Shown here: in pieces, positions 4,273 through 41,738 of the stretch
Numbering within the stretch: the first letter of the stretch is position 1
How the letters are laid out: every line of letters starts with the position of its first letter
IMG/VR virus record: IMGVR_UViG_3300038758_000056
Source: a virus
Direction: 5' to 3' (one strand)
DNA: 44,187 bases
Position numbers and translations under genes: made by a program
The notes under the pieces: model-generated
Told to the model about the DNA's origin: nothing
Database searches by the model: none
What the model saw: the letters and a program-made list of their open reading frames with translations, nothing else

Positions 4273-4296
4273 CGTTTTGTGTTTTGATTACATCGG

Positions 4297-4359
4297 CTAA
4301 AGTAACACTATTTGAATAAAGTGCAAACAAGAATCGTTATTTAGAATGATTCCAGATAA
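4297..4359 (-). promoter_or_regulatory. Early promoter P2 with upstream palindromic operator
   Basis: Minus sense: operator TTATCTGGAATCATTCTAAATAA (4359..4337, 9/11 palindrome), -33 TTTG within TTTGCAC (4327..4321), 19-nt spacer, -7 TACTTTAG (4304..4297). Near-duplicate of 7315..7388. Confidence 0.55.
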
Positions 4360-4362
4360 GGG

Positions 4363-7208: not shown

Positions 7209-7297
7209 GTGCGCACCCGCCTATCTTTTTCAATTATAACCCCAACACCCACCGCTGCTAGGGCTATGATGTGAATTATGTGATGTAATATATCCAT
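7163..7297 (-). CDS. Small membrane protein, 44 aa (MDILHHIIHIIALAAVGVGVIIEK...)
   Basis: Manual translation. First ORF after promoter P1; hydrophobic core. Confidence 0.35.
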   Translation of the reverse strand: MDILHHIIHIIALAAVGVGVIIEKDRRVRTWMVVCLIWIVASMT

Positions 7298-7314
7298 CGC
7301 TTTATTTGTTTCTC

Positions 7315-7388
7315 CAAACATACAACTATTTACATAAAGTGCAAAGAAAGGCTTCGTTTAATGCTTATTTGGAATGTTTCTAAATAAG
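7315..7388 (-). promoter_or_regulatory. Early promoter P1 with upstream palindromic operator
   Basis: Minus sense: operator CTTATTTAGAAACATTCCAAATAAG (7388..7364, 10/12 palindrome), -33 TTTG within TTTGCAC (7345..7339), 19-nt spacer, -7 TATGTTTG (7322..7315). Confidence 0.6.
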
Positions 7389-7802
7389 GTTCACTCTTAA
7401 ACATACCGACTCTATCTAAGCATTAGGGGGAGTAGTGCCTATTTGGTTAGCGTATACCTTCCTTACATTAGTCGTGGCCTCCTCAATCCTTTGTGCCGCC
7501 ACTTGATACTGGTTTAGTATCGTTTGGAATAACCCCTTGTTTTAACCGTTGGCACGTATGCTTTAGCTTGGTGTTGTCAGTCGGACGACATTGCACCTAC
7601 GGGGCTTTCTACACTATGAAAATTGGTTGAGCTTGTTCGCGGTTTGCCTTCGCTGTCGGTCAACTCTTATTAACCCCGACAATTATAGGTACAAATATAG
7701 AAAAAAATTAGCCCCATCCAACAGGACAGGGCCGCAATTTTGGCAAACCGCTAACCCGAAACGGGCTGCTGTAAAAGTACTATTAAATACTGTATAACAA
7801 AA

Positions 7803-10034: not shown

Positions 10035-10182
10035 CGGGTGAATGTAGACCGATTTTCATTCAACGATGTAGCTATGGCACGTATCCCGAAGGGTATGGGC
10101 TATAGCGTGTGTTGTACACTGGCACGGTATATCAGCACAAAACTAACTACGAAGCAATACAGTAATAATTAAATATTGAGCG

Positions 10183-10422
10183 ATGGCCTTAGAGAAATTA
10201 GACGAAAAAGGGTTTGTATTCATCGATGGTAACAATAGACCGTATTGGTGCAGAATGTACTACGGAAAGCCAGTATGGATGAGGTGGAACGAAGGAACAA
10301 AATCATGGATTACATACAGAGAAATAACGCAGAGCGAGGTGTGGCAATCTGAACTTATGAAGATACCCGATGAGCAAGCAAACATCTACCACGAAAAGCA
10401 TGATAAATTCATAAACGGATGA
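10183..10422 (+). CDS. Hypothetical protein
   Basis: ORF. Its leader is near-identical to that of 40882..41655. Confidence 0.6.
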   Translation: MALEKLDEKGFVFIDGNNRPYWCRMYYGKPVWMRWNEGTKSWITYREITQSEVWQSELMKIPDEQANIYHEKHDKFING

Positions 10423-20035: not shown

Positions 20036-20066
20036 AAACCCCCGAACGCTACCAAACGTCCGAGGG
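20034..20066 (-). terminator. Intrinsic terminator for the minus-strand 20152..20739 unit
   Basis: Minus sense: CCCTCGGACG - 8 nt - CGTTCGGGGG (8/10 pairs) followed by TTTTT. Confidence 0.45.
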
Positions 20067-20151
20067 TAACTGAAGAAAGAACTGAGCCGTAAAATTACAC
20101 AACTGCGGCCAAATCTCACTACGCGAGTATTTAGCCATGTGTTGTATTTAA

Positions 20152-20499
20152 TTAACCCCCCCCTCGCCAATCTCTGTTGTGCTTACTTAATACCTCTCTT
20201 CCAATTTTTCTCACGGCTTCACAATCTTCACCCTGCATTTTTAGTCGTGCTATTGGTGTGTCAAAGTACCCCATTAGGTTATGTATGCAATCCAGTAATT
20301 CCTTATCGGGGTTTAACTCCGTTCGTTCCTCACTTAATACAACATCAGCTAAAGCATCAGAATTAACTTGTTCTAGGCGGTCGCAGTATGCTTCTAGTTC
20401 TTTTACAAATCTCATAACATCCGAAATAGGCACATTTGTCTCAACGCCTTTGTCAGTCACTTTTGGCTTTCCGTAATATTCTAGTTTTGGTCGTTTCAT
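20152..20499 (-). CDS. Hypothetical protein
   Basis: ORF; ends in a G8 run on the sense strand. Confidence 0.6.
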   Translation of the reverse strand: MKRPKLEYYGKPKVTDKGVETNVPISDVMRFVKELEAYCDRLEQVNSDALADVVLSEERTELNPDKELLDCIHNLMGYFDTPIARLKMQGEDCEAVRKIGREVLSKHNRDWRGGG

Positions 20500-20547
20500 C
20501 AGTATCTATTTAACCGTTAATACCGCTGTTTAGCTGCCTCCGTTGTG

Positions 20548-20739
20548 TCAATTCCTCACAAGCACGTTAACAGGTTCTCTACCCTCCTTAATCAACAAAA
20601 GGTCTGAATACTTAGCCGCTGCCCTTTCGCCTTCATCGGTTGGCGGGAATAGTTTAGTCTTACTTCCCACCCTTGCTTGCCAGAACCTACGCCCTTGGTA
20701 TTTAGTCCATCGAATGTACTTGTAATCACTTTTACTCAT
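20548..20739 (-). CDS. AP2-domain DNA-binding protein
   Basis: YKYIRWTKYQGRRFWQARVGSKTKLFPPTDEGERAAAKYSDLLLIKEG follows the AP2/ERF-type pattern (Y.G......W.A.......lG.F.t.e.AA.aYd). Confidence 0.55.
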   Translation of the reverse strand: MSKSDYKYIRWTKYQGRRFWQARVGSKTKLFPPTDEGERAAAKYSDLLLIKEGREPVNVLVRN

Positions 20740-20743
20740 TCGG

Positions 20744-20751
20744 CAAACATA
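20744..20751 (-). promoter_or_regulatory. -7 box TATGTTTG placed 4 nt before the ATG of the AP2 gene
   Basis: Perfect TAnnTTTG on the minus strand. The spacing implies a leaderless or near-leaderless mRNA. Confidence 0.45.
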
Positions 20752-20753
20752 AT

Positions 20754-20836
20754 AAAAAAAGCCCCAACTCTAGGTTAGGGCTAAAGCGGGGAGAAAAACA
20801 AGTAAAACCCCCGCAACGATGAACACTTCAAAGTTA
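20754..20836 (-). ncRNA. Candidate sRNA of about 70 nt (promoter box, two stem-loops, U7 tail)
   Basis: Minus sense: TAACTTTG box (20836..20829), stem GCGGGG/CCCCGC (20814..20786), stem GCCCTAAC/GTTGGGGC (20781..20761), then TTTTTTT (20760..20754). No ORF. Confidence 0.3.
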
Positions 20837-20860
20837 GATAATAATTTGTATTATTGACGC

Positions 20861-23920: not shown

Positions 23921-24469
23921 ATGGGTTGTACTAATTACAACTGCTCTGATATTTCTCCACAGGTATTGAATGATTGCGGTAATCCGCTAGAAGGTGGGTT
24001 TGACCAAGCTGTAGTCTTTGACTGCGATGCTACGACAACCGACTTCACTAACGGGATTACGATAGCGGCTGATATAGCTGCGGGTCGAGCAATACTCTAC
24101 AAGAACATCAAGGCAGGAATCGAAGCAGCTTCTCCGAATGAGATAGACGTTATGGTAGCTGGTCAAGAAGCACGGGCCGTCAACTATTCGCGTACTGCGA
24201 CTTGGGTTGATGCGAACGTGAACACTTCGAGTTCGGCAGCTTATGACACCTTGGATGCAACTTCTGGAATCACAGCTAAGGCCGTGTTGTTTCACCTCGC
24301 AAGTGGTGATAACGCTGTTTTGGTTGATCCTCCAAAGGGAGCTATCTTCAAAGGTGGATTGATTGTACCAAATGACACTTCTGACGCGGCTCGTTACGAG
24401 TACACGGTTGCATGGAAAGACCCAAGCAACCCTGCGATTCAGGCAGTGCCATCAGGCGTATTCTCATAA
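23921..24469 (+). CDS. Virion structural protein candidate (possibly the major tail protein)
   Basis: 182-aa ORF with its own promoter box and a strong terminator. No tube gene is visible beside the chaperone. Function inferred only. Confidence 0.3.
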   Translation: MGCTNYNCSDISPQVLNDCGNPLEGGFDQAVVFDCDATTTDFTNGITIAADIAAGRAILYKNIKAGIEAASPNEIDVMVAGQEARAVNYSRTATWVDANVNTSSSAAYDTLDATSGITAKAVLFHLASGDNAVLVDPPKGAIFKGGLIVPNDTSDAARYEYTVAWKDPSNPAIQAVPSGVFS

Positions 24470-24493
24470 GGAGTTGAGCGATCGACTTTGAGA

Positions 24494-24519
24494 GGGCTGG
24501 CTTATTGCTGGCCCTTTTT
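24494..24519 (+). terminator. Intrinsic terminator
   Basis: GGGCTGGC - ttatt - GCTGGCCC (8 bp including 2 G-T pairs) followed by TTTTT. Confidence 0.7.
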
Positions 24520-24584
24520 CGTTTGCTACAACTGCCGCTAAATTCCATGCTACGCACGTCTATTTAGCGAGGTGTTGGCGGTAA

Positions 24585-24950
24585 TTACTCCACCAACTTA
24601 GCTATGTAAGTATTTTTATCTTTCCAGCCATCAGCATACTTTTTAGCGTCATCAAGTGTTTCAAACTTGTTGCTAAGTTGTATCATGCCTTCAACCCCTT
24701 CGTCTGAACCGTCTTCAAAAACAATGTAACTACCGCCAACAATGGGTATAGCACATATTTTTACTACTTCATCGAGAAAACTATCAAAGTCTTCTTCCAA
24801 AAGGGCGTTGGTGTGTTTGCTTGTTCCGCTTGGATAAGTGCTTTTTACTTTATCCCAAAGTGCTAGTTTCAATTTATCTTTCATGTTATTTAATTTTAGT
24901 GTTTCAATTCCGTAAAAATACGATGCCATACCCGAAGCCGTTATATGCAA
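24585..24950 (-). CDS. Hypothetical protein (true start probably the ATG at 24884 or 24929)
   Basis: The ORF-track start is a TTG lying inside the conserved intergenic element. Internal Mets give MKDKLKLALWDK... Confidence 0.55.
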   Translation of the reverse strand: MHITASGMASYFYGIETLKLNNMKDKLKLALWDKVKSTYPSGTSKHTNALLEEDFDSFLDEVVKICAIPIVGGSYIVFEDGSDEGVEGMIQLSNKFETLDDAKKYADGWKDKNTYIAKLVE

Positions 24951-24953
24951 TGG

Positions 24954-25502
24954 CTACCATCCGTCCATCACATAGGTGATTTTACAATCACCCACAAAGC
25001 CTTTTTGGTAGTGTAAACATCCAACGGGGAAGCCAAATCCAAATCCGTGTTTACTGCCTCCGCCCATATACACTATCTCTTTTAACCCACCGTATTCAAG
25101 CACCATCTTTTGTACTTTGTTGCTTTTAAAGGCTTTGGCTATCGGCACAAAGAACACAACATTGTCAGCAATAGAAAATGCCTTTTGAAGAAAGTGGTCA
25201 TAAATACTGTAAGGTGGGTTTGTAATTATCCAATCTACTTTCTTATCCCAATCAAAGAAGTCAAGTCCTTCGTCAATTTCACATCTGTATTTATTCTCGC
25301 TTTCAAATAAATCGTAAAAGGCATTTTCCCCAGCAGCAGGTTCTAAAATTGAGCCTTGTGGTTTAAAGTAATCTACAATCCATTTTGCTGTTGTGTTTTT
25401 AGTAAACACTCTGTCAGCAGCAGTAGCCGTCTTTGTCTTATTCGGCTTTGTTGGTGTTCCATTTCTTGTCATAATTTCATTTTTAATTAACCGCCACAGC
25501 AT
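24954..25502 (-). CDS. N6-adenine DNA methyltransferase, gamma-like class (start probably the ATG at 25472)
   Basis: Motif I ILEPAAGENAF and motif IV IITNPPYS. Confidence 0.8.
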   Translation of the reverse strand: MLWRLIKNEIMTRNGTPTKPNKTKTATAADRVFTKNTTAKWIVDYFKPQGSILEPAAGENAFYDLFESENKYRCEIDEGLDFFDWDKKVDWIITNPPYSIYDHFLQKAFSIADNVVFFVPIAKAFKSNKVQKMVLEYGGLKEIVYMGGGSKHGFGFGFPVGCLHYQKGFVGDCKITYVMDGW

Positions 25503-25569
25503 ATAACACAGAGTATAAATAACCCTACGGGTCGCTATCGCTTATTCATACCCACGTCCGTTATGCCCC
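25499..25569. repeat. Palindromic intergenic unit U2 (YAAC - L arm - loop - L arm - GTTR)
   Basis: GCATATAAC aca GAGTATAAATAA [19 nt] TTATTCATACCC acgtcc GTTATGCCCC. L arms complementary at 10/12; AAC pairs with GTT. Confidence 0.8.
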
Positions 25570-25571
25570 AT

Positions 25572-26114
25572 TTAAGAAAGCACCTCGAAAACGAATTTGC
25601 TTGGTAATAATTGACTGCATAAATAAATGCTTTTGAATGTAGCACCTTTTTTAATTACACCGTCTTTTATATAGTTAATTCGCTTATCAAAAACCATTAT
25701 TTCAAAAGGATTGTTTTTTAGCATTTCATACCTTTTCTTAGTATCAAATAATCCACTTTCATTTATCAATAAAGCAAATGGTTTGCCTATCAAAAATAAC
25801 CTATCTAAAATCGGTGTTCTTAAACTATATGGTGGGTTGCTAATAATGTAATCGTAATTTTGTGGCTCATATTCAAAAAAGTTTTTACCGTCTTCAATGT
25901 GTCCGTAAATTACAGTATTCCCATTTTCTCGGAGCAACTTTACAAAATTACTTTCTTCTTTATCAAATGGACACCATACAGTTTTATCACTTGGGATGTA
26001 TTTCAATAATGGCTTTATAGCATATTCAAGCGTATAAAATTCGTCTGATTTATTTATTTTGTCTTGTGCAAATTCGTGATTCATAAAATAAAGAATAAAA
26101 ACGGGGCATAACAC
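25572..26114 (-). CDS. EcoRI-methylase-like adenine DNA methyltransferase (start probably the ATG at 26084)
   Basis: SDEFYTLEYAIKPLLKYIP..KTVWCPFDKEESNFVKLL...YDYIISNPPYSLRTPILDRL matches the EcoRI_methylase-type family. Confidence 0.7.
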   Translation of the reverse strand: MLCPVFILYFMNHEFAQDKINKSDEFYTLEYAIKPLLKYIPSDKTVWCPFDKEESNFVKLLRENGNTVIYGHIEDGKNFFEYEPQNYDYIISNPPYSLRTPILDRLFLIGKPFALLINESGLFDTKKRYEMLKNNPFEIMVFDKRINYIKDGVIKKGATFKSIYLCSQLLPSKFVFEVLS

Positions 26115-26237
26115 ACGGTATAAAAAATTGGGGCGTGTGTAGTTTCCCGAAGGTTAATACTATTATTTATCATTGTGGCGGTGCGAAAGTTTATCTCTTT
26201 TAATCCCCAACTTTTCATACCGCAAAACGTTAGCTGC
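26103..26237. repeat. Palindromic intergenic unit U5
   Basis: GGGGCATAAC aca CGGTATAAAAAA [84 nt] TTTTCATACCG caaaac GTTAGCTGC. L arms complementary at 10/11. Confidence 0.75.
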
Positions 26238-26448
26238 AAGCGAGTGGTCGCCAAGCAATACATTCAGCAAAAGGCATATCGTCATCGTAAAATTCGCAAA
26301 CACTACCGTCATCAAATAGCATTTCAAAGTTTTCGCCCGTAGGCATTTCAATTAGGTTCACTTCGTTTTGCTCACCTTTGATAAATCGCCAGCAGCTAAC
26401 ATCCGCTACAGTGCATGGCTGTTGGTTGTTTTCTGATACTGTACTCAT
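26230..26448 (-). CDS. Small acidic hypothetical protein
   Basis: ORF rich in Asp/Glu (EFYDDDMPFAE). Confidence 0.55.
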   Translation of the reverse strand: MSTVSENNQQPCTVADVSCWRFIKGEQNEVNLIEMPTGENFEMLFDDGSVCEFYDDDMPFAECIAWRPLACS

Positions 26449-26507
26449 AATTCAAAGTTTATTTTTGTTTAGATGCGTTGTTGAAAGCCACGCACCATAG
26501 CTTTTAC

Positions 26508-26545
26508 GTTGTATGCCATTGAAACGGTACGCTTCGCCATACAAC
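26508..26545. repeat. Closed GTT...AAC hairpin: GTTGTATG - 22 nt - CATACAAC
   Basis: 8-bp perfect inverted repeat read directly. Same end motifs as the gene-bracketing arms but with nothing inside. Confidence 0.7.
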
Positions 26546-26565
26546 ATGGTATATAAGCAAAAAAC

Positions 26566-26808
26566 TTAACTACCATTCTCCTTTTCATTAAGGTACTCGA
26601 AATAAGAAAGGGCAGCCGTGAATGAACACCAACCTATTTTCTTACCAATACCCTCCCAAACTGCTTTACAATAAGTCATATCATTTCCATACTCATTATC
26701 GTTCCACCTTTTTAATTCTGCTTCTATGGTCGGGATATGCCCTTGTGCTTCCAAACCAAATACTACTTTAAGCCCTTTCTTTTCGACTTCTTCAAATAAT
26801 TCTTTCAT
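26566..26808 (-). CDS. Hypothetical protein
   Basis: ORF in the accessory island. Confidence 0.6.
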   Translation of the reverse strand: MKELFEEVEKKGLKVVFGLEAQGHIPTIEAELKRWNDNEYGNDMTYCKAVWEGIGKKIGWCSFTAALSYFEYLNEKENGS

Positions 26809-26864
26809 AATTTATCCGTTAAGTTTTCTACTCATATACCTGTCTGTTGGTAGTAATAGTTTTG

Positions 26865-27068
26865 CTATCTATTAACTTGATAAATAGCTATTGCACCAAT
26901 AGAGGTAATAGCACCTTCTATCGCTACTAAAAACCTAATGTTTTGTTCCCAATTTGCAAAATTCATTTCAAGCAATACAAATGCATTTCCTAGATACCAA
27001 ACCGCAAAACCACATACTACCAACAAAGTATAAAGTGCATAGCTTTTAAGTGTTTTAATTATGTCCAT
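26865..27068 (-). CDS. Small membrane protein (2 TM)
   Basis: Two hydrophobic segments: YALYTLLVVCGFAVWYLGNAFVLL and FLVAIEGAITSIGAIAIY. Confidence 0.6.
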   Translation of the reverse strand: MDIIKTLKSYALYTLLVVCGFAVWYLGNAFVLLEMNFANWEQNIRFLVAIEGAITSIGAIAIYQVNR

Positions 27069-27126
27069 TTTTTTTATTTAAGTTATTTTTAATTCAGTTA
27101 TTCGTGCTGTTTAGGTCGCTACGACA

Positions 27127-27153
27127 CCTTATACAAACCGTTACCCACAATAC
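27127..27153. repeat. Half unit (L arm CCTTATACAAA - cc - GTTACCCACAATAC) 3' of gene 27164..27691
   Basis: Carries the left arm of the 13/14 inverted repeat whose partner is at 27725..27738. Confidence 0.7.
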
Positions 27154-27163
27154 TACGTGAGTG

Positions 27164-27691
27164 CTACCAATTGAATTTTTCAGCGTTTAAGTAAACTTGT
27201 GTGTGTATTCTTCTTTGATTGACATTTATAGTGGTTGGGTGTATGAACTTCTTTGGTATTACACGAATAAAACACCTCCAAGTATGTTCATTACTCATAA
27301 TACCTCTATGTAAATCATTTTGAGTGAACGTATGCCATTTCTGTTCTTCTTTAAAGTAGTTGTTTCCCTCCTTATCTTTGTATTCTGTTAGCGGAGGGCC
27401 ACTTAACCACATATACATTTTCTCGCCTGTTATACCTCTAAAATCTCTTTTCAAGTTTTCATCTCTTGGTACAAAATCTCTGTGCCAATTTGGAATACAA
27501 GGGAATTGCTTCGGCATAAGCATATGTATTTTTACATCAACTGCATATTCCTCTTTAGGTAATTCAAGTAGTCCAGATTCCAACAACTCGTTTATTATAG
27601 GTTCTACTTCGGGCATTAATTCTATTGTCTTTTCAAACGAGCAAAGCATAACTCCATTTGTACTTTTACTCCAATCAATATTATGTTTCAT
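27164..27691 (-). CDS. Hypothetical protein with HxD...H motifs (possible Fe(II)/2-oxoglutarate dioxygenase or cupin-like fold)
   Basis: NWHRDFVP ... NDLHRG ... WRCFIRV could form a facial triad plus Arg. No confident family match by eye. Confidence 0.3.
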   Translation of the reverse strand: MKHNIDWSKSTNGVMLCSFEKTIELMPEVEPIINELLESGLLELPKEEYAVDVKIHMLMPKQFPCIPNWHRDFVPRDENLKRDFRGITGEKMYMWLSGPPLTEYKDKEGNNYFKEEQKWHTFTQNDLHRGIMSNEHTWRCFIRVIPKKFIHPTTINVNQRRIHTQVYLNAEKFNW

Positions 27692-27724
27692 TATCTGTTT
27701 TTTTAAATTTTATACTAAAAACCC

Positions 27725-27769
27725 GTACTGTGGGTAACACTAAATATACCCCATATTCCGTTGCACTAC
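27725..27769. repeat. Short palindromic unit U1
   Basis: GTACTGTGGGTAAC acta AATAT accccc... ATATT cc GTTGCACTAC. AAC pairs with GTT, and the AATAT/ATATT arms pair. Confidence 0.6.
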
Positions 27770-27821
27770 ATACGGTGCATATTCTCAACGTTGTGTCTTG
27801 CTTAGTTTCGCGCAATATACT

Positions 27822-27833: not shown

Positions 27834-28736
27834 ATGGCAAAAAAGCAAAGAGGGATTTTACTTTTAGCGTTCGGAGCTAAAGGTTACGCAGAGTTGGCGG
27901 CTAATCTAGCTTACTCACTCAAAAGACATTCAAATGTTCATATTACTTTAGCGGTTCAACCCGACTTGATGGACTACATTTTCGCAGAGGATTACCAATA
28001 CTTCGACAATATCATCGACCTCAAAGAAGATGACTACATGAAGGATGGAAAGGTAGACCCAGCACGTGCTAAAGTTCGTATCTATGACATAGGCTCAAAG
28101 CTATACAAGGAGTTCATCTATTTAGACGTTGACGCGCTTTGCTGGCATGACATCGAAGGGCTATTCACTCAATGTTCTGAAAGTGAGAAGTATTACATCA
28201 CAGACGTTAAGGGAGTTGGCAGTCAGGACGAGGTGGTTAATTACTCAATCTGGGCTAAGAATGAGGACATTACGGAGTTCTTCGGATTGAAAAAGAAAGA
28301 CAAGATAGTAGCGATTCAATCGAGTTGGTGCTACTTCAAGACGTGTCCAGATACTAAGAAGTTCGCAACCGAGGTTAAGAAATACTATAACAAGGGCTTC
28401 GACCTATTGAAACTGCAAGAAAAGTGGGGCGGTACGTTACCTGATGAGCTTATCTTCTCAGGTGTGCTTTCTAAGATGGGTTTAGACGCTTCTCACGAGT
28501 TCTACCCTGCTCCTATACACTTTGGCAACCATCACCCTAAAAAGGGCATGACAGAGCTTGCGGAGGATTCTTACCTATTGAGTGTTTACGGGAATGGCAA
28601 CGGCCAAACGCTTACCAAAGTCGCCTATTTAGAGTATTACGACAGGGTGTTGATTCAATGGAAAAAGGAACACGGTCAGAATCACAAGTACAAGATAGGT
28701 CAAGCGAACAAGGATAAACACGCTAATAAGCATTGA
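27834..28736 (+). CDS. GT8-like nucleotide-sugar glycosyltransferase
   Basis: GILLLAFGAKGYAELAANLAYSLKRHS ... KEFIYLDVDALCWHDIEGLF (DxD), as in family 8 enzymes. Confidence 0.45.
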   Translation: MAKKQRGILLLAFGAKGYAELAANLAYSLKRHSNVHITLAVQPDLMDYIFAEDYQYFDNIIDLKEDDYMKDGKVDPARAKVRIYDIGSKLYKEFIYLDVDALCWHDIEGLFTQCSESEKYYITDVKGVGSQDEVVNYSIWAKNEDITEFFGLKKKDKIVAIQSSWCYFKTCPDTKKFATEVKKYYNKGFDLLKLQEKWGGTLPDELIFSGVLSKMGLDASHEFYPAPIHFGNHHPKKGMTELAEDSYLLSVYGNGNGQTLTKVAYLEYYDRVLIQWKKEHGQNHKYKIGQANKDKHANKH

Positions 28737-30025
28737 TTAAGCTATTAGAGGTCTACAAGCCTGCTTGGTTCACATCTAAACGGTATGTGATAAAGGTAGG
28801 TGGTAGAGGCGGTGGAAAGTCTCACGATGAGGCTTACTTTCACGTTATTAAGTGCCGTCAACCCGAATACTACAGAGGGGTTTTAGTTCGTGAGATTCAC
28901 GGATCAATCAGAGATTCCCAGTTTGCTGAAATCAAATCAGCAATAGAAGCACTTGACATCGGTAACGAGTTCATCATTCGTGAAAACACGATGGAAGTTG
29001 AGCATCGTATCACAGGCAACAAGATACTAGCTAAGGGTTTAAAGAAGTCGAGCAGCCACGAGGTCGCCAAATTCAAGTCGATTAAAGACCCTACGCACGT
29101 ATGGTTTGAAGAACCGACCGAAACAACTAAACCAGACTTTGACCAGGTTGATGAATCTGTAAGGACGTTAAAGAGCGATGTTCTTCAAATTCGCATGACC
29201 ATGAACACCGACATCGGCCCTGACCATTGGATTCGTAAAGAGTTCTTTGATGTTGAGCGACCAGATGCAGAGATTGTTTGGAGTACCTACCTTGATAATC
29301 AAGTAAATCTATCGCCTTCGTTCATCGCTTTGATGGATAGAATGAAAGAGACGGATTTCGAGAGGTGGAAAGTAACCGCTATGGGGGGATGGGGAAAGCG
29401 GGACGTTCAAAACCCTTTCGCTACTCAATTCGACTATTTAAAGCACGTTAAAACCTGTTCTTATCAGCCTCAGAAGGTTCTGCGTATCAACTTTGATTTC
29501 AATATTTCGCCTTTCGCTATTACGTTTTCCCACTTCTGGAGGGATAAAGAAGGATACCACCACCACACGTTTGACGAAGCAACGATTGAAGACGGGACTA
29601 TTGACAAGGCTTGTGATTACATTCTAAGCGCGTATAAGCCTAGTTTACCTACCTGTGTTATTCACGGGGACGCTTCGGGCAACGCTAGGCAGTTAAGCCA
29701 ACGCGATCACGCTAATCTTTATAAACTGATTGAAAGGAAGTTAAATCTAAGGGGTAGGCAGTTCAAAATAAAGAAGTCAAACCCTAGACATACTAACTCA
29801 AGGAATGACGTTAACTATTTATTGATGCACTTCCCAGACCTGAGAATAAGCCCCGATTGCCCTAATCTGATAAGTGATCTGGAAACGGTTGAGGTGAATG
29901 CAGAAGGTAAGATAATAAAGGCCCAAAGAACTAAGAAAGAACAAAGGGCCGACCACTTAGATGCGGCTCGTTATGATTACGATTCAACTGAACTTAATGA
30001 TTGGATTGCTAACCATCAAAGATAA
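28733..30025 (+). CDS. terL: Terminase large subunit
   Basis: Walker A KVGGRGGGKSH, Walker B-like HVWFEEPTE, C-terminal nuclease-like region. TTG start overlapping the GT8 stop (TTGA). Confidence 0.85.
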   Translation: MIKLLEVYKPAWFTSKRYVIKVGGRGGGKSHDEAYFHVIKCRQPEYYRGVLVREIHGSIRDSQFAEIKSAIEALDIGNEFIIRENTMEVEHRITGNKILAKGLKKSSSHEVAKFKSIKDPTHVWFEEPTETTKPDFDQVDESVRTLKSDVLQIRMTMNTDIGPDHWIRKEFFDVERPDAEIVWSTYLDNQVNLSPSFIALMDRMKETDFERWKVTAMGGWGKRDVQNPFATQFDYLKHVKTCSYQPQKVLRINFDFNISPFAITFSHFWRDKEGYHHHTFDEATIEDGTIDKACDYILSAYKPSLPTCVIHGDASGNARQLSQRDHANLYKLIERKLNLRGRQFKIKKSNPRHTNSRNDVNYLLMHFPDLRISPDCPNLISDLETVEVNAEGKIIKAQRTKKEQRADHLDAARYDYDSTELNDWIANHQR

Positions 30026-30098
30026 TTTTGTAAGTTTGTCTTATCGTTAGTCCGCATGCTAACATTGAAGGCTTTGATTGACCTGTAAGAACAGGCTT

Positions 30099-39729: not shown

Positions 39730-39759
39730 CGTTGCGATCATTAAAACGGATCGCTAACG
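39730..39759. repeat. Closed GTT...AAC hairpin: CGTTGCGATC - 9 nt - GATCGC(t)AACG
   Basis: 10-bp stem with one bulge, in the convergent intergenic region. Confidence 0.65.
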
Positions 39760-39765
39760 TTCCAT

Positions 39766-39795
39766 AAAAGGCATGGCGAAAAGCCACGTCCTTTT
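39766..39795. terminator. Bidirectional intrinsic terminator between convergent units
   Basis: AAAAGGCATGGC - gaaaa - GCCACGTCCTTTT. A-run on one side and T-run on the other. Confidence 0.65.
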
Positions 39796-39816
39796 ATCGA
39801 GACGTTGTGCGCAATA

Positions 39817-40065
39817 TTACCTACTACGCATATCTACACAAGCAATAATAGCGGTTTTAGTATGGTAAACATAAATTTGCCACTCACTATTACCCGTGTT
39901 GCTTTCTTTAACCCAAAGAACACCATGATACCAACCTTCTTTCTTTTCTGCCATATATCTCTCTTCAAATTCTATGGCTTTCTGTAATGCTTCGGTTCTT
40001 AAAAAACCGCTATTAGCGTCTGCTTTTATAATTATTTTTTTCATATAAAAATAAATACTGCGCAC
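39817..40065 (-). CDS. Hypothetical protein (start probably the ATG at 40044)
   Basis: The ORF-track start is a GTG lying inside the inverted-repeat arm. MKKIIIKADANSG... from the ATG. Confidence 0.55.
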   Translation of the reverse strand: MRSIYFYMKKIIIKADANSGFLRTEALQKAIEFEERYMAEKKEGWYHGVLWVKESNTGNSEWQIYVYHTKTAIIACVDMRSR

Positions 40066-40195
40066 AACATTGTATATAAATCAGTGGCGTTGTACGTCTT
40101 TTTAACCACTTTTAGCTGTTTAATTTAGTTTAAGCGTGTCGGCAATCTTACAGCTATTAATCGCCACCGCTTCATATACTTAACCGTTAGCGGTA
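40054..40195. repeat. Palindromic intergenic unit U4
   Basis: AATACTGCGCACAAC att GTATATAAA [90 nt] TTCATATAC ttaacc GTTAGCGG. L arms complementary at 8/9. Confidence 0.7.
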
Positions 40196-40405
40196 ATTCT
40201 CCCAATCAATACCATACTTCTCACAAATTTCAATTGCATCTCTACCAATTATTCCAACTGTTGAGCCAGCATAATCTTTTCCCCAACGTTGAGCAGCAAC
40301 TACTATTACCCTTTCAATTTTTAAGGGCAAAGAACTACCGCTAACATCGGCTATAAAATCATTGCCGTTTTCGTGATTATTCAAAGTTTTTTTCTCTTTA
40401 TTCAT
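40187..40405 (-). CDS. Hypothetical protein
   Basis: ORF in the accessory island. Confidence 0.6.
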   Translation of the reverse strand: MNKEKKTLNNHENGNDFIADVSGSSLPLKIERVIVVAAQRWGKDYAGSTVGIIGRDAIEICEKYGIDWENYR

Positions 40406-40477
40406 GTCGTTTATAATTTAAAAGTTATAGTCTTTTTATCAGCAACGCTTCATAGCCGTATCCCGTTGTGTGTAATG

Positions 40478-40757: not shown

Positions 40758-40840
40758 GCACTCCCCACAACACTTTGTATAGTGCATAGCTCGTGCCTCA
40801 CTACGACACCATACAAGATGCCGTTGTACACAAGCACTAC
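40758..40840. repeat. Palindromic intergenic unit U3
   Basis: GCACTCCCCACAAC a CTTTGTATAGTG [22 nt] CACCATACAAG atgcc GTTGTACACAAGCACTAC. L arms pair with one bulge and one mismatch. Confidence 0.7.
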
Positions 40841-40877: not shown

Positions 40878-40892
40878 ATAATTAAATATTTT
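40878..40892. repeat. AT-rich inverted-repeat arm ATAATTAAATATTTT (partner 41661..41675)
   Basis: Perfect 15/15 complement of 41661..41675; overlaps the stop codon of 40882..41655. Confidence 0.8.
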
Positions 40893-41655
40893 CTCCCACC
40901 CGCTCAAAAGGTAATTCTCTTACCAAGTATTCTTCGGGTATTTCCTGTACCTTATCTATTTGCTTAAAAAAGTAAGGAACATTTTGGCTTCTACATTCTA
41001 ATTTCAATCGGTCAGCCCAAAGCAAATCAAACGGTCTTTTTCCGTGTCCGCTTTCACCGCCTTGAATTACCCAGCCAATCCCAGATAAATCAATATTCTT
41101 TATTTCTGCCAATTGTGGTTCTACACTCAAAAACAAATTTCCATTTACCTGTTGAAGGATTGGTACAAGGTTTTCAAATGTCTTTTGGTCAACAGGAGAG
41201 CATCCGAACCAAACGTTTTTTGGTGGGTAATTTTGCCAATCTAAAGGAATTTGTTTGTTGATATTGCTTGGTCTTTTAGTCAAAAAAAGGAAAGTAAGAT
41301 TGTTGTATTTACCATTTGAAATTCTATTGAATAATTCGTTTCTCAAATCTTCGGTAGTTTCAGCCAATAAGTGCTTGTTTGATATTGGTTTTGACTTCTC
41401 GAAAATATCCATCATTGACCCAACAAATACTCTTACATCAATTCCTTTTTCTTCAGCTTCCTTTTGATATTTATTTAAATCATTGAAAGCTGATTTAATT
41501 CTTTTGCGGTCTTTTCCTTCACCCCAAATGTCATTACCCCATCTATGCGATAATGTTTCTGCATAGCAGTTATCACATCCAGCGTGTACTTTAGTACATC
41601 CCCACCAAAGATTAACCGTGTGTTCTGTCCATTCTATTTTACTGTTTTTTGCCAT
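40882..41655 (-). CDS. Phage Gp37/Gp68 family protein (DUF5131)
   Basis: N-terminus SKIEWTEHTVNLWWGCTKVHAGCDNCYAE is the family signature. Confidence 0.85.
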   Translation of the reverse strand: MAKNSKIEWTEHTVNLWWGCTKVHAGCDNCYAETLSHRWGNDIWGEGKDRKRIKSAFNDLNKYQKEAEEKGIDVRVFVGSMMDIFEKSKPISNKHLLAETTEDLRNELFNRISNGKYNNLTFLFLTKRPSNINKQIPLDWQNYPPKNVWFGCSPVDQKTFENLVPILQQVNGNLFLSVEPQLAEIKNIDLSGIGWVIQGGESGHGKRPFDLLWADRLKLECRSQNVPYFFKQIDKVQEIPEEYLVRELPFERVGENI

Positions 41656-41660
41656 CGCTC

Positions 41661-41675
41661 AAAATATTTAATTAT
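41661..41675. repeat. AT-rich inverted-repeat arm AAAATATTTAATTAT (partner 40878..40892)
   Basis: Lies in the 5' leader of 40882..41655. The same leader occurs at 10161..10187. Confidence 0.8.
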
Positions 41676-41738
41676 TACTTCTGTTCTCGTATCAAGTTCA
41701 GTGCGTAATTCCCGCATGTTTTTTATCTGTACCGTTGA

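Follow-up and report, generated by a model that had tools for sequence, protein, structure and literature searches.

The 44,187-nucleotide viral sequence IMGVR_UViG_3300038758_000056 of IMG/VR (hereafter the window, meaning the whole stretch of DNA analysed) has long imperfect palindromes between its small genes, and the question raised by these intergenic hairpins is whether they serve in recombination, in RNA metabolism, or in both. An earlier note on the sequence had likened two of them, U2 and U5, to the attC sites of integrons, in a phage without an integrase. The anatomy of the units, their strand specificity, the covariation of their stems, the mosaic distribution of the genes between them, the position of junctions in related phages and the coupling of similar arrays to a recombinase gene lead us to regard the palindromes as probable sites of structure-specific recombination, part of an integron-like cassette system that is native to Bacteroidota and to their phages. 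The phage in the window would then be a carrier resembling a CALIN (cluster of attC sites lacking an integron integrase) and dependent on a recombinase of its host.

Hairpin units and the cassettes between them

Units were located with a scanner of our own (AAC, spacer, stem, loop, return stem, spacer, GTT), in which G.T pairs, at most one mismatch and loops of up to 320 nt were allowed; AAC and GTT were criteria, but a T preceding AAC and an A following GTT were not. The scanner placed 13 units, all with AAC...GTT (13/13), on the minus strand of the window, which is the sense strand of the genes, in three arrays: eight units in array A, from 27799 down to 24523, four in array B, from 40832 down to 39749, and at least one in array C, which spans about 20036–20860 (Table 1). 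Read along the sense strand, a unit consists of x'-TAAC, a spacer of 3–6 nt, a stem of 9–23 bp, a loop of 13–247 nt, the return stem, a spacer of 1–4 nt and GTT-x, where x stands for the cassette-specific bases after GTT and x' for the bases ending at the next AAC and complementary to x. The orientation of the units is always that of the genes (those at 24585–27691 are all on the minus strand), and this includes a plus-strand unit at 10055–10120. U2 and U5 read as the earlier note had described them, at 25498–25569 and 26103–26238 in our coordinates, and the palindromes are real, with the correction that they are specific to the minus, gene-sense strand (see below); the spacer asymmetry of 3 and 6 nt claimed for both was recovered for U2, but for U5 the best pairing leaves 1 and 4 nt. 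Three sites that had been taken for half units (24925–24948, 27127–27153 and 40451–40470) are full units, whose 3' arms (24744–24754, 27028–27038 and 40348–40358) lie 85–168 nt downstream inside called open reading frames (ORFs), in sequence that ORF calling gives to the next gene. A fourth putative half unit had been placed at about 20509–20527; a clear terminal unit was found at 20094–20150.

The window units were located from their stems alone, and it emerged afterwards that the 10-mer starting at GTT is the reverse complement, at 9–10 of 10 positions, of the 10-mer ending at the next AAC in nine of ten successive unit pairs (10/10 in six and 9/10 in three; the sole weak pair, B1 to B2, has 7/10). 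This generalises the earlier observation that the outer sequence of a unit matches the arm across the adjacent gene. The companion claim, that the outer bases are not complementary within a unit, also held, the outer six bases being paired within the unit in 47% of cells in the family set of 67 units described below, near the 32–41% of slid controls. Perfect GTTN7/N7AAC pairs within 1.5 kb number nine in the window against 1.4 expected, with a maximum of six in 100 shuffles, and six of the nine coincide exactly with array positions. In addition, CATACC-N7-GTTA occurs three times exactly on the plus strand and, at one mismatch, eight times against 2.5 expected (0/100 shuffles reach eight), and ATAACACANNGTATAAA occurs twice against 0.15 expected. 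Complementarity between GTT and AAC boxes across a gene is the geometry of an integron cassette.

When the units were folded as RNA, a check that the earlier note had proposed, the sense strand gave z scores of −1.8 to −2.5 and the antisense strand −0.7 to +0.8. In the window stems, read on the sense strand with G.T and A.C scored alike, 18 G.T pairs were counted against one A.C; in other loci the bias points the same way, lying on the strand with the longer 5' spacer (a survey of GTTN7/N7AAC intervals at one mismatch, consisting mostly of chance pairs, was used solely for this direction). Sense-only folding together with the G.T bias therefore indicates that the folded species is one strand, as RNA or as single-stranded DNA (ssDNA).

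The large surveys also relied on our scanner, which requires a stem and, for a set of 378 linked units across all loci, additionally required the cassette helix. In these 378 units the 5' spacer, as read on the sense strand, measures 4–6 nt and the 3' spacer 1–3 nt, the commonest (5',3') pairs being (4,1), (5,1) and (5,2). Among 67 units of fixed geometry, TAACG, T-GTT-A and stem pair 6 (U-A) are invariant or nearly so, and stem pair 14 is G.U in 65. The TAAC/GTTA pairing, invariant in the 67 units, is present in 100% of cells, a percentage that, like others of these surveys, is partly by construction because of what the scanner requires. Twelve of 14 stem pairs vary on both sides, and this diversity of pair types, unlike the paired percentage, is not by construction, because selection was for the presence of a stem. 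The covariation score is 0.549, against 0.178 in shuffles (0/500 reach it) and 0.08–0.12 with slid partners. An inner helix and an asymmetric spacer (4–6 against 1–3 nt) are seen, as in the layout that the earlier note had described, but extrahelical bases are not; the G.T at pair 14 and other wobbles are found instead.

Much of this would suit RNA elements within a polycistronic messenger RNA that serve, for example, in RNase III-type processing, in the stabilisation of 3' ends or in the insulation of cistrons, with cassette exchange as a by-product of short conserved sequences. It is the transcript-sense strand alone that folds, with G.U used and A.C almost not, the stems are often 17–23 bp without bulges, which is the length of an RNase III substrate, and the orientation of units follows the genes even on the plus strand. 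Moreover, sigma-70-like promoters (8 against 11.6 expected) and terminators (2 against 2.2 expected) are not enriched, nor is TAnnTTTG, and none of these signals occurs in the units; an array is therefore probably one transcript. We nevertheless consider a purely RNA role unlikely, as it leaves unexplained why x and x' are cassette-specific yet perfectly complementary, why junctions between near-identical phages fall at TAAC|G and why arrays of fixed orientation stand beside a tyrosine recombinase in dozens of genomes (see below); in addition, no Rfam family matched the arrays, either at gathering thresholds or at E <= 10, where only noise was returned. A tRNA scan found none. Two other readings were rejected: that the units are terminators or promoters, for want of enrichment, and that they are miniature inverted-repeat or other transposons, the terminal repeats being cassette-specific except for GTTA/TAAC and target-site duplications being absent.

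Cassette movement and a linked recombinase

Both DNA methyltransferase cassettes of array A recur in otherwise unrelated phages, with edges of homology at GTTA...TAAC. Methyltransferase 1 (25572–26084) is 94% identical at the amino acid (aa) level in the IMG/VR locus L001 and 61–92% in L002–L006, L019 and L020, and it is the sole gene common to the window and these loci; nucleotide homology between the window and L001 begins at GTTATG and stops at CA(T/C)ATAAC. The flanking 10-mers differ by compensatory change, being GTTATGCCCC...GGGGCATAAC in the window and GTTATGTGCC...GGCACATAAC in L001 and L003; GCCCC/GGGGC against GTGCC/GGCAC is a compensatory change of this kind. Methyltransferase 2 behaves in the same way in L147–L149, L151, L153 and L154, and is the sole shared gene, at 83–88% identity, in L147–L149. 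A GTTAx/x'TAAC pair of its own brackets each shared methyltransferase, whereas the stems next to it have unrelated sequences in different phages and similar ones within a phage (ten linked units in L147, four in L001). The closest relative of the window phage (L321; TerL 80%, syntenic) is without arrays A and C, which fits an accessory nature of the arrays. An exact-protein look-up of methyltransferase 1 returned the same phage only, at 99.98–100% identity and hence no cassette variants, and a pattern scan of viral contigs for TTTATACNNTGTGTTAT gave single chance matches only. At L006:5830–6640, methyltransferase 1 is present at 88% aa identity with no flanking unit, the gene abutting or overlapping the upstream ORF; thus, this gene also occurs outside a cassette context. 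As to cargo, the arrays of the related loci L147, L148–L151, L155–L160 and L156 are rich in DNA methyltransferases (N6_N4_Mtase in five proteins and MT-A70 in four) and also encode a Tad6 anti-Thoeris homolog and a Mom-like protein, which fits anti-defence cargo in phages.

Flavobacterium phage morran9-1 carries units and methyltransferase 1 at 73.5% identity, and offers a comparison among close relatives (Lillamyvirus): the backbones of lillamy9-7, lillamy9-1, snork6-1 and hemulen6-1 are 99.8–100% identical to that of morran9-1, and the phages differ by insertions, replacements and one translocation. These changes amount to at least seven events (indels, replacements or translocation) with at least 12 junctions, and every junction is at (A/T)TAAC|G(T), between the x'-TAAC that ends one gene and the 5' arm of the next hairpin, and the homology shared at the junctions is usually 5–8 nt, once 16 nt. 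The piece translocated between morran9-1 and lillamy9-7 runs from just past TAAC through the hairpin, GTTATAACTC and the gene up to GAGTTATAAC; one hairpin-plus-gene cassette thus occupies different array positions in two phages, and its limits define the mobile unit as hairpin, gene and x'-TAAC. Junctions within the R box (ATAAC|G), where attC sites have their crossover (G|TT on the top strand, AA|C on the bottom strand), are seen in the Lillamyvirus phages, though not in the lineage of the window. The polarity of attC cassettes, an ORF followed by its attC, is not found: junctions lie between stop codon and hairpin, and the hairpin moves with the downstream gene. We also observed that methyltransferase genes differ between otherwise near-identical Baltic Flavobacterium phages.

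Could such exchange occur without a dedicated recombinase? The hairpins may stall replication or be cut by structure-specific nucleases, and phage Erf, NinG/Rap and an SbcD-like nuclease may then join genomes by copy-choice or microhomology at TAACG. Among the products of the window are ERF, NinG/Rap, an SSB-like DUF3127 protein and an SbcD-like metallophosphoesterase, and NinG/Rap or a DNA repair exonuclease is present in Polaribacter phage P12002L and in the Lillamyvirus phages; the short homology at the junctions and the lack of a detectable integrase in any of these lytic phages also favour this view. It does not account, however, for the selection on x/x' complementarity evident from the compensatory variants, for the strand-specific G.T bias or for the coupling of arrays to a recombinase in bacterial chromosomes, and we think it improbable.

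As the earlier note had stated, the window is without an integrase: neither Pfam nor PHROGs revealed an integrase, transposase or HUH protein, and tblastn found no homolog of the array-linked recombinase described here (E > 4). The array of L147 stops ~60 nt before the gene (L147:5580–6380) for a 266-aa tyrosine recombinase, whose best models, both below threshold, are XerA/integron integrase (165 bits) and the integron integrase model TIGR02249 (150 bits in two stretches); when aligned with VchIntIA, the recombinase lacks about 48 residues of the domain specific to IntI. Around 50 of 80 IMG/VR loci that encode relatives of this recombinase carry linked arrays, all on the strand of the recombinase gene, upstream of it and ending just before its start, and opposite-strand links amount to three stray single ones. 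Among isolate genomes and metagenome-assembled genomes (MAGs), relatives of the recombinase all belong to Bacteroidota bar a few stray MAGs, and arrays adjoin it in Maribacter sp. R77961, Polaribacter sp. R77954, Seonamhaeicola, Gaetbulibacter, Aquimarina, Tamlana and Arenibacter, with side and strand in the isolate genomes always such that the sense-3' end faces the recombinase. The stems on the Polaribacter chromosome resemble those of phage P12002L. A search for further copies and an associated recombinase in Bacteroidota phages and hosts, which the earlier note had suggested, thus yielded both.

In many draft genomes (L258, L262, L263, L265, L286 and others) no more than a few kb separate the recombinase gene from a contig end, a position that fits assemblies breaking in repetitive arrays, so that array sizes in the databases are probably underestimated. 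A 300-aa gene of the window at 27834–28736, divergent from array A, was considered as a hidden integrase and rejected, its product having no Pfam, NCBIfam or PDB sequence match; it is conserved beside TerL in the array-less L321 and is more likely to be terminase-associated. Through this protein no relatives were found in viral contigs, and a metagenome scan gave only relatives at 37–39% without arrays.

Inventory of the window

Table 1. Units, cassette helices and loops located in the window
Feature	Position	Strand	Sequence and content
A1, first unit of array A	27729–27799	−	AAGACACAAC-GTTGA-(15 bp stem)-AGT-GTTACCCACA
Cassette helix GTTACCCACA / TGTGGGTAAC	27140–27738	−	10/10; gene 27164–27691 (phrog_1843) inside
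A2 (formerly a half unit)	27015–27149	−	TGTGGGTAAC-GGTTT-GTATAAGGTGT...GCACTTTATAC-TTT-GTTGGTAGTA
A2 loop		−	85 nt; contains start of ORF 26865–27068
A3	26536–26855	−	23-bp stem 26818–26840 / 26548–26570; 3 G.U, 0 mismatch
A3 loop		−	Whole 80-codon gene 26566–26808 inside
Empty cassette	26508–26545	−	GTTGTATGGC, 18 nt, GGCATACAAC; helix 9/10
A4	26391–26517	−	16-bp stem, 3 G.U; start of ORF 26230–26448 in loop
Cassette helix after A4		−	GTTAGCTGC / GCAGCTAAC
A5 (formerly U5)	26103–26238	−	TGCAGCTAAC-GTTT-(20 bp stem, 4 G.U)-T-GTTATGCCCC
Cassette helix GTTATGCCCC / GGGGCATAAC	25560–26112	−	10/10; DNA methyltransferase 1 (25572–26084) inside
A6 (formerly U2)	25498–25569	−	GGGGCATAAC-GGACGT-GGGTATGAATAA...TTATTTATACTC-TGT-GTTATATGCT
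Cassette helix GTTATATGC / GCATATAAC	24940–25507	−	DNA methyltransferase 2 (24954–25472) inside
A7 (formerly a half unit)	24731–24949	−	11-bp stem 24923–24933 / 24744–24754; 168-nt loop
Cassette helix after A7	24574–24740	−	GTTGGCGGTA / TACCGCCAAC, 10/10
A8, terminal unit of array A	24523–24583	−	3-nt spacer, stem TCGCTAAAT / ATTTAGCGG, then CA-GTTGTAGCAA
B1	40762–40832	−	TGTGTACAAC-GGCATC-TTGTATGGTGT...GCACTATACAA-AGT-GTTGTGGGGA; next cassette helix 7/10
B2 (formerly a half unit)	40336–40474	−	Stem CGGCTATGAAG / TTTTATAGCCG
Cassette helix after B2		−	GTTAGCGGTA / TACCGCTAAC, 10/10
B3	40059–40195	−	18-bp stem
Cassette helix after B3		−	GTTGTGCGCA / TGCGCACAAC, 10/10; ORF 39817–40044 inside
B4, terminal unit of array B	39749–39813	−	
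Terminal unit of array C	20094–20150	−	Sequence resembles A8
Single plus-strand unit, besides the 13	10055–10120	+	TTCATTCAAC-GATGTA-(16 bp stem)-GTGT-GTTGTACACT; upstream of, and co-oriented with, plus-strand genes

The terminal units of the three arrays are unlike the internal ones in having a 3-nt 5' spacer and a short stem of 9–11 bp; two of the three end in CA-GTTGT, and 24561–24594 and 20128–20161 are direct repeats. These units could be primary insertion sites, similar to attI. The recombinase-linked arrays end in ...ATAAC-TAT(C/T)ATATATAA(A/G)CAAG (L147, L177), and the array-proximal sequence ...ATAAC-TATYATATATAA... is a candidate attI. Between array A (minus strand) and the convergent gene 23921–24469 (plus strand), GGGCTGGCTTATTGCTGGCCCTTTTT at 24490–24520 is a classic intrinsic terminator, which probably ends both convergent transcripts.

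The hairpin loops have features of their own. Four small ORFs (26865–27068, 26230–26448, 24585–24884 and 40187–40405; 67–99 aa) start in loops and continue across the 3' stem arm and GTT-x, and in two of them the stop codon is the TAA of the conserved TAAC; they may be real proteins, or shorter ORFs may begin after GTT-x instead. Short motifs, CTAAACAGC(A/G)..AT(A/T)AAC and (G)TAGCGACC, are common to the loops or flanks of several units (27097–27123, 20516–20542 and 25524–25538), and loops in other phages (L001, L147, L149 and L154) have ACAAATGTT(G/T)AAT(AAACCAC) in common; such motifs may be a protein-binding or promoter element within the loops.

Elsewhere in the window, an identical 16-mer, GTAATAATTAAATATT, occurs at 10162–10177 (plus strand) and 41663–41678 (minus strand), with none expected by chance, in both cases just upstream of a start codon (gene 10183–10422 on the plus strand and gene 40882–41655, DUF5131, on the minus strand), and may be a shared leader or regulatory site. 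The intergenic regions 4273–4362 and 7209–7802 (minus strand) share the repeat ...ATTC(T/C)AAATAA...TTTGCACTTTAT(T/G)(C/T)AAATAGT...; the second of these, at 594 nt, is the longest non-coding stretch, and a perfect GTTAGCGTAT / ATACGCTAAC pair lies at 7446/7851. Possible readings are a regulatory region, an origin or a further cassette.

Known systems and a possible mechanism

Using IntegronFinder and HattCI, Qi and co-authors surveyed 10,705 phage genomes and reported 17 CALINs, one of which is in Polaribacter phage P12002L and has two sites "encoding two DNA methyltransferases" (Qi et al., 2023; PMC9892861). P12002L_attC1 (TGCTAAC GGCTAC GGCTAAACGG...CCGTTTTAGCC ATT GTTAGGC, minus strand 30005–30059) is a typical unit of the present family; attC2 of the same study is the array end seen from the other strand, and the strand called "bottom" there, which IntI1 did recombine (PMC9892861), is the gene-sense strand. 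Our scanner finds at least ten units in P12002L, against the two sites of that study. The belief expressed in the earlier note that such elements had not been described therefore needs qualification, as this CALIN belongs to the family; in the literature searched, the coverage of which is incomplete, we found no account of the array–recombinase platform or of the inverted polarity of the cassettes, and no description of these elements in papers on Flavobacterium or Polaribacter phages.

The likeness to attC sites and CALINs is broad. An imperfect hairpin is closed at its base by the paired ...AAC and GTT... boxes, with a second helix beyond an asymmetric unpaired spacer, a variable loop and one folding strand; each outer box complements the first bases of the cassette to which it belongs, junctions fall at the AAC/GTT box, and short genes of the same orientation, DNA methyltransferases among them, form tandem arrays. 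The arrays of eight and four have what defines a CALIN, at least two tandem sites with no integron integrase nearby, provided that the units count as attC-like. Could they then be fragments of a classical integron, with ordinary attC sites that are substrates of an IntI-type integrase? HattCI flagged one unit in P12002L and IntI1 recombined the array-end sequence of this phage (PMC9892861), and the AAC/GTT boxes are present. However, the present hairpins belong to the 5' end of the cassette gene, so that the genes are inverted relative to attC polarity and the boundary of a cassette falls on the opposite side of the hairpin; the stems are long (up to 23–25 bp) and have conserved G.T wobbles in place of extrahelical bases; the R box of the circular form would be ~10 bp rather than 7; and the loops can contain genes. 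Moreover, the genuine unit that was tested failed with IntI1 (PMC9892861), IntegronFinder 2.0 finds essentially no integrons in Bacteroidetes, and the linked recombinase is without the additional domain of IntI. A canonical origin is thus very improbable, and the attC-like layout proposed in the earlier note is supported in the sense that the units would work like attC sites, not in the sense of membership of the canonical attC family.

Other systems share parts of this design. Integrative mobile elements exploiting Xer recombination of the CTX-phage type (folded ssDNA attP, XerCD) resemble the present units in that an Xer-family recombinase is proposed to act on a one-strand hairpin, with an unpaired central bubble and one-sided cleavage, but the present sites have no dif-like 11-6-11 site with conserved arms, and they stand in tandem arrays flanking single genes, making up cassettes and not whole phage genomes. 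In the pdif modules of Acinetobacter plasmids, short sites in inverse orientation stand on either side of the genes and are thought to be used by host Xer recombinases; these elements carry no dedicated recombinase, and pdif sites are a conserved 28-bp duplex. Here, unlike in dif and pdif sites, whose two arms of roughly 11 bp enclose a central region of 6–8 bp, only TAACG and TGTTA are invariant and the arms vary while half-to-half pairing is kept, which therefore points to recognition of structure. The promoter-stem-loop cassettes (PeSLs) of T4-type phages are likewise repeated intergenic stem-loops that flank accessory genes in hyperplastic regions of lytic phages and mark indel or replacement boundaries between close relatives; they are, however, conserved promoter-plus-terminator sequences that recombine by homology (PMC2839356, PMC4122927), whereas the present units have no promoter or terminator signal, share little homology at their junctions and have cassette-specific flanking complementarity. 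Lastly, the DUF1874 motif is structured, lies in consecutive intergenic regions and was proposed as a possible unusual attC with no nearby integrase (Weinberg et al., 2017; PMC5737381), but it is multistem with a highly conserved internal loop, and no Rfam family sensibly reached E = 10 in the present arrays.

In the mechanism that we propose, the mobile unit on the gene-sense strand would be C|G-spacer-(stem-loop)-spacer-GTTA-x-(gene)-x'-TAA|C. In the circularised cassette, perfect pairing of x'-TAAC with GTTA-x would form a hairpin whose R box measures ~10 bp and is followed by an asymmetric bubble (4–6 against 1–3 nt) and a long second helix with conserved G.T wobbles; the need for a perfect R box on circularisation would be the reason why x/x' complementarity is maintained. 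A tyrosine recombinase would cut the TAAC side of the folded sense strand, leading to excision, insertion and reshuffling of cassettes. The cut side would be the 5' R box beside the longer spacer and the folding (G.T) strand the formal equivalent of the attC bottom strand; in formal terms, the element would be an integron cassette viewed from the strand that is antisense to its gene. With arrays of eight, four and at least one unit but no recombinase, the window phage would therefore be a CALIN-like passenger, served in trans presumably by an Xer/IntI-related recombinase of the kind that flanks identical arrays in Flavobacteriia chromosomes.

Several points weigh against this account. The link between arrays and recombinase is an association read from sequence and, the window being without a recombinase, service in trans has to be assumed. 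An RNA role would explain the G.U bias of the stems just as well, because the folding strand is also the transcript (RNA and DNA roles could coexist), and the paired percentages of the large surveys are, as noted, partly built in. No recombination event is recorded in the window's own lineage, of which five contigs, all from this one phage, show no difference across the arrays. P12002L_attC1 was the only one of six tested sites that IntI1 did not recombine (PMC9892861), and ORFs that begin in loops and traverse the 3' arm and GTT-x, of which there are several, are unusual for integron cassettes. The recombination-site reading first advanced in the earlier note is nevertheless supported by the geometry of the 13 units, the covariation of the stems, the movement of cassettes at GTTA/TAAC edges and the ATAAC|G junctions.

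A wider proposal, for which we hold the chances to be even, is that Bacteroidota carry an unrecognised integron-type platform, made up of tandem hairpin-plus-gene cassettes and a short Xer-like recombinase without the IntI signature domain, that its cassettes circulate between chromosomes and virulent phages, and that recombinase-less lytic phages keep exchangeable arrays of anti-defence genes, such as methyltransferases, served by the host enzyme during infection. Phage CALINs have so far been treated as rare stray fragments; the arrays described here are highly organised (13 units in a 44-kb phage, at least ten in P12002L), widespread in phages and chromosomes of Flavobacteriia, and coupled to recombinases of a lineage distinct from the canonical IntI family. 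Cultured phage–host pairs are available (Polaribacter with P12002L; Flavobacterium LMO6 and LMO9 with Lillamyvirus). If active, the system would offer a concrete explanation of how lytic phages come to be mosaic gene by gene and how they swap anti-defence genes, would account for the rapid turnover of methyltransferase genes in near-identical Baltic Flavobacterium phages, and would be a candidate for an independent, or ancestral, solution to structure-specific recombination of ssDNA cassettes.

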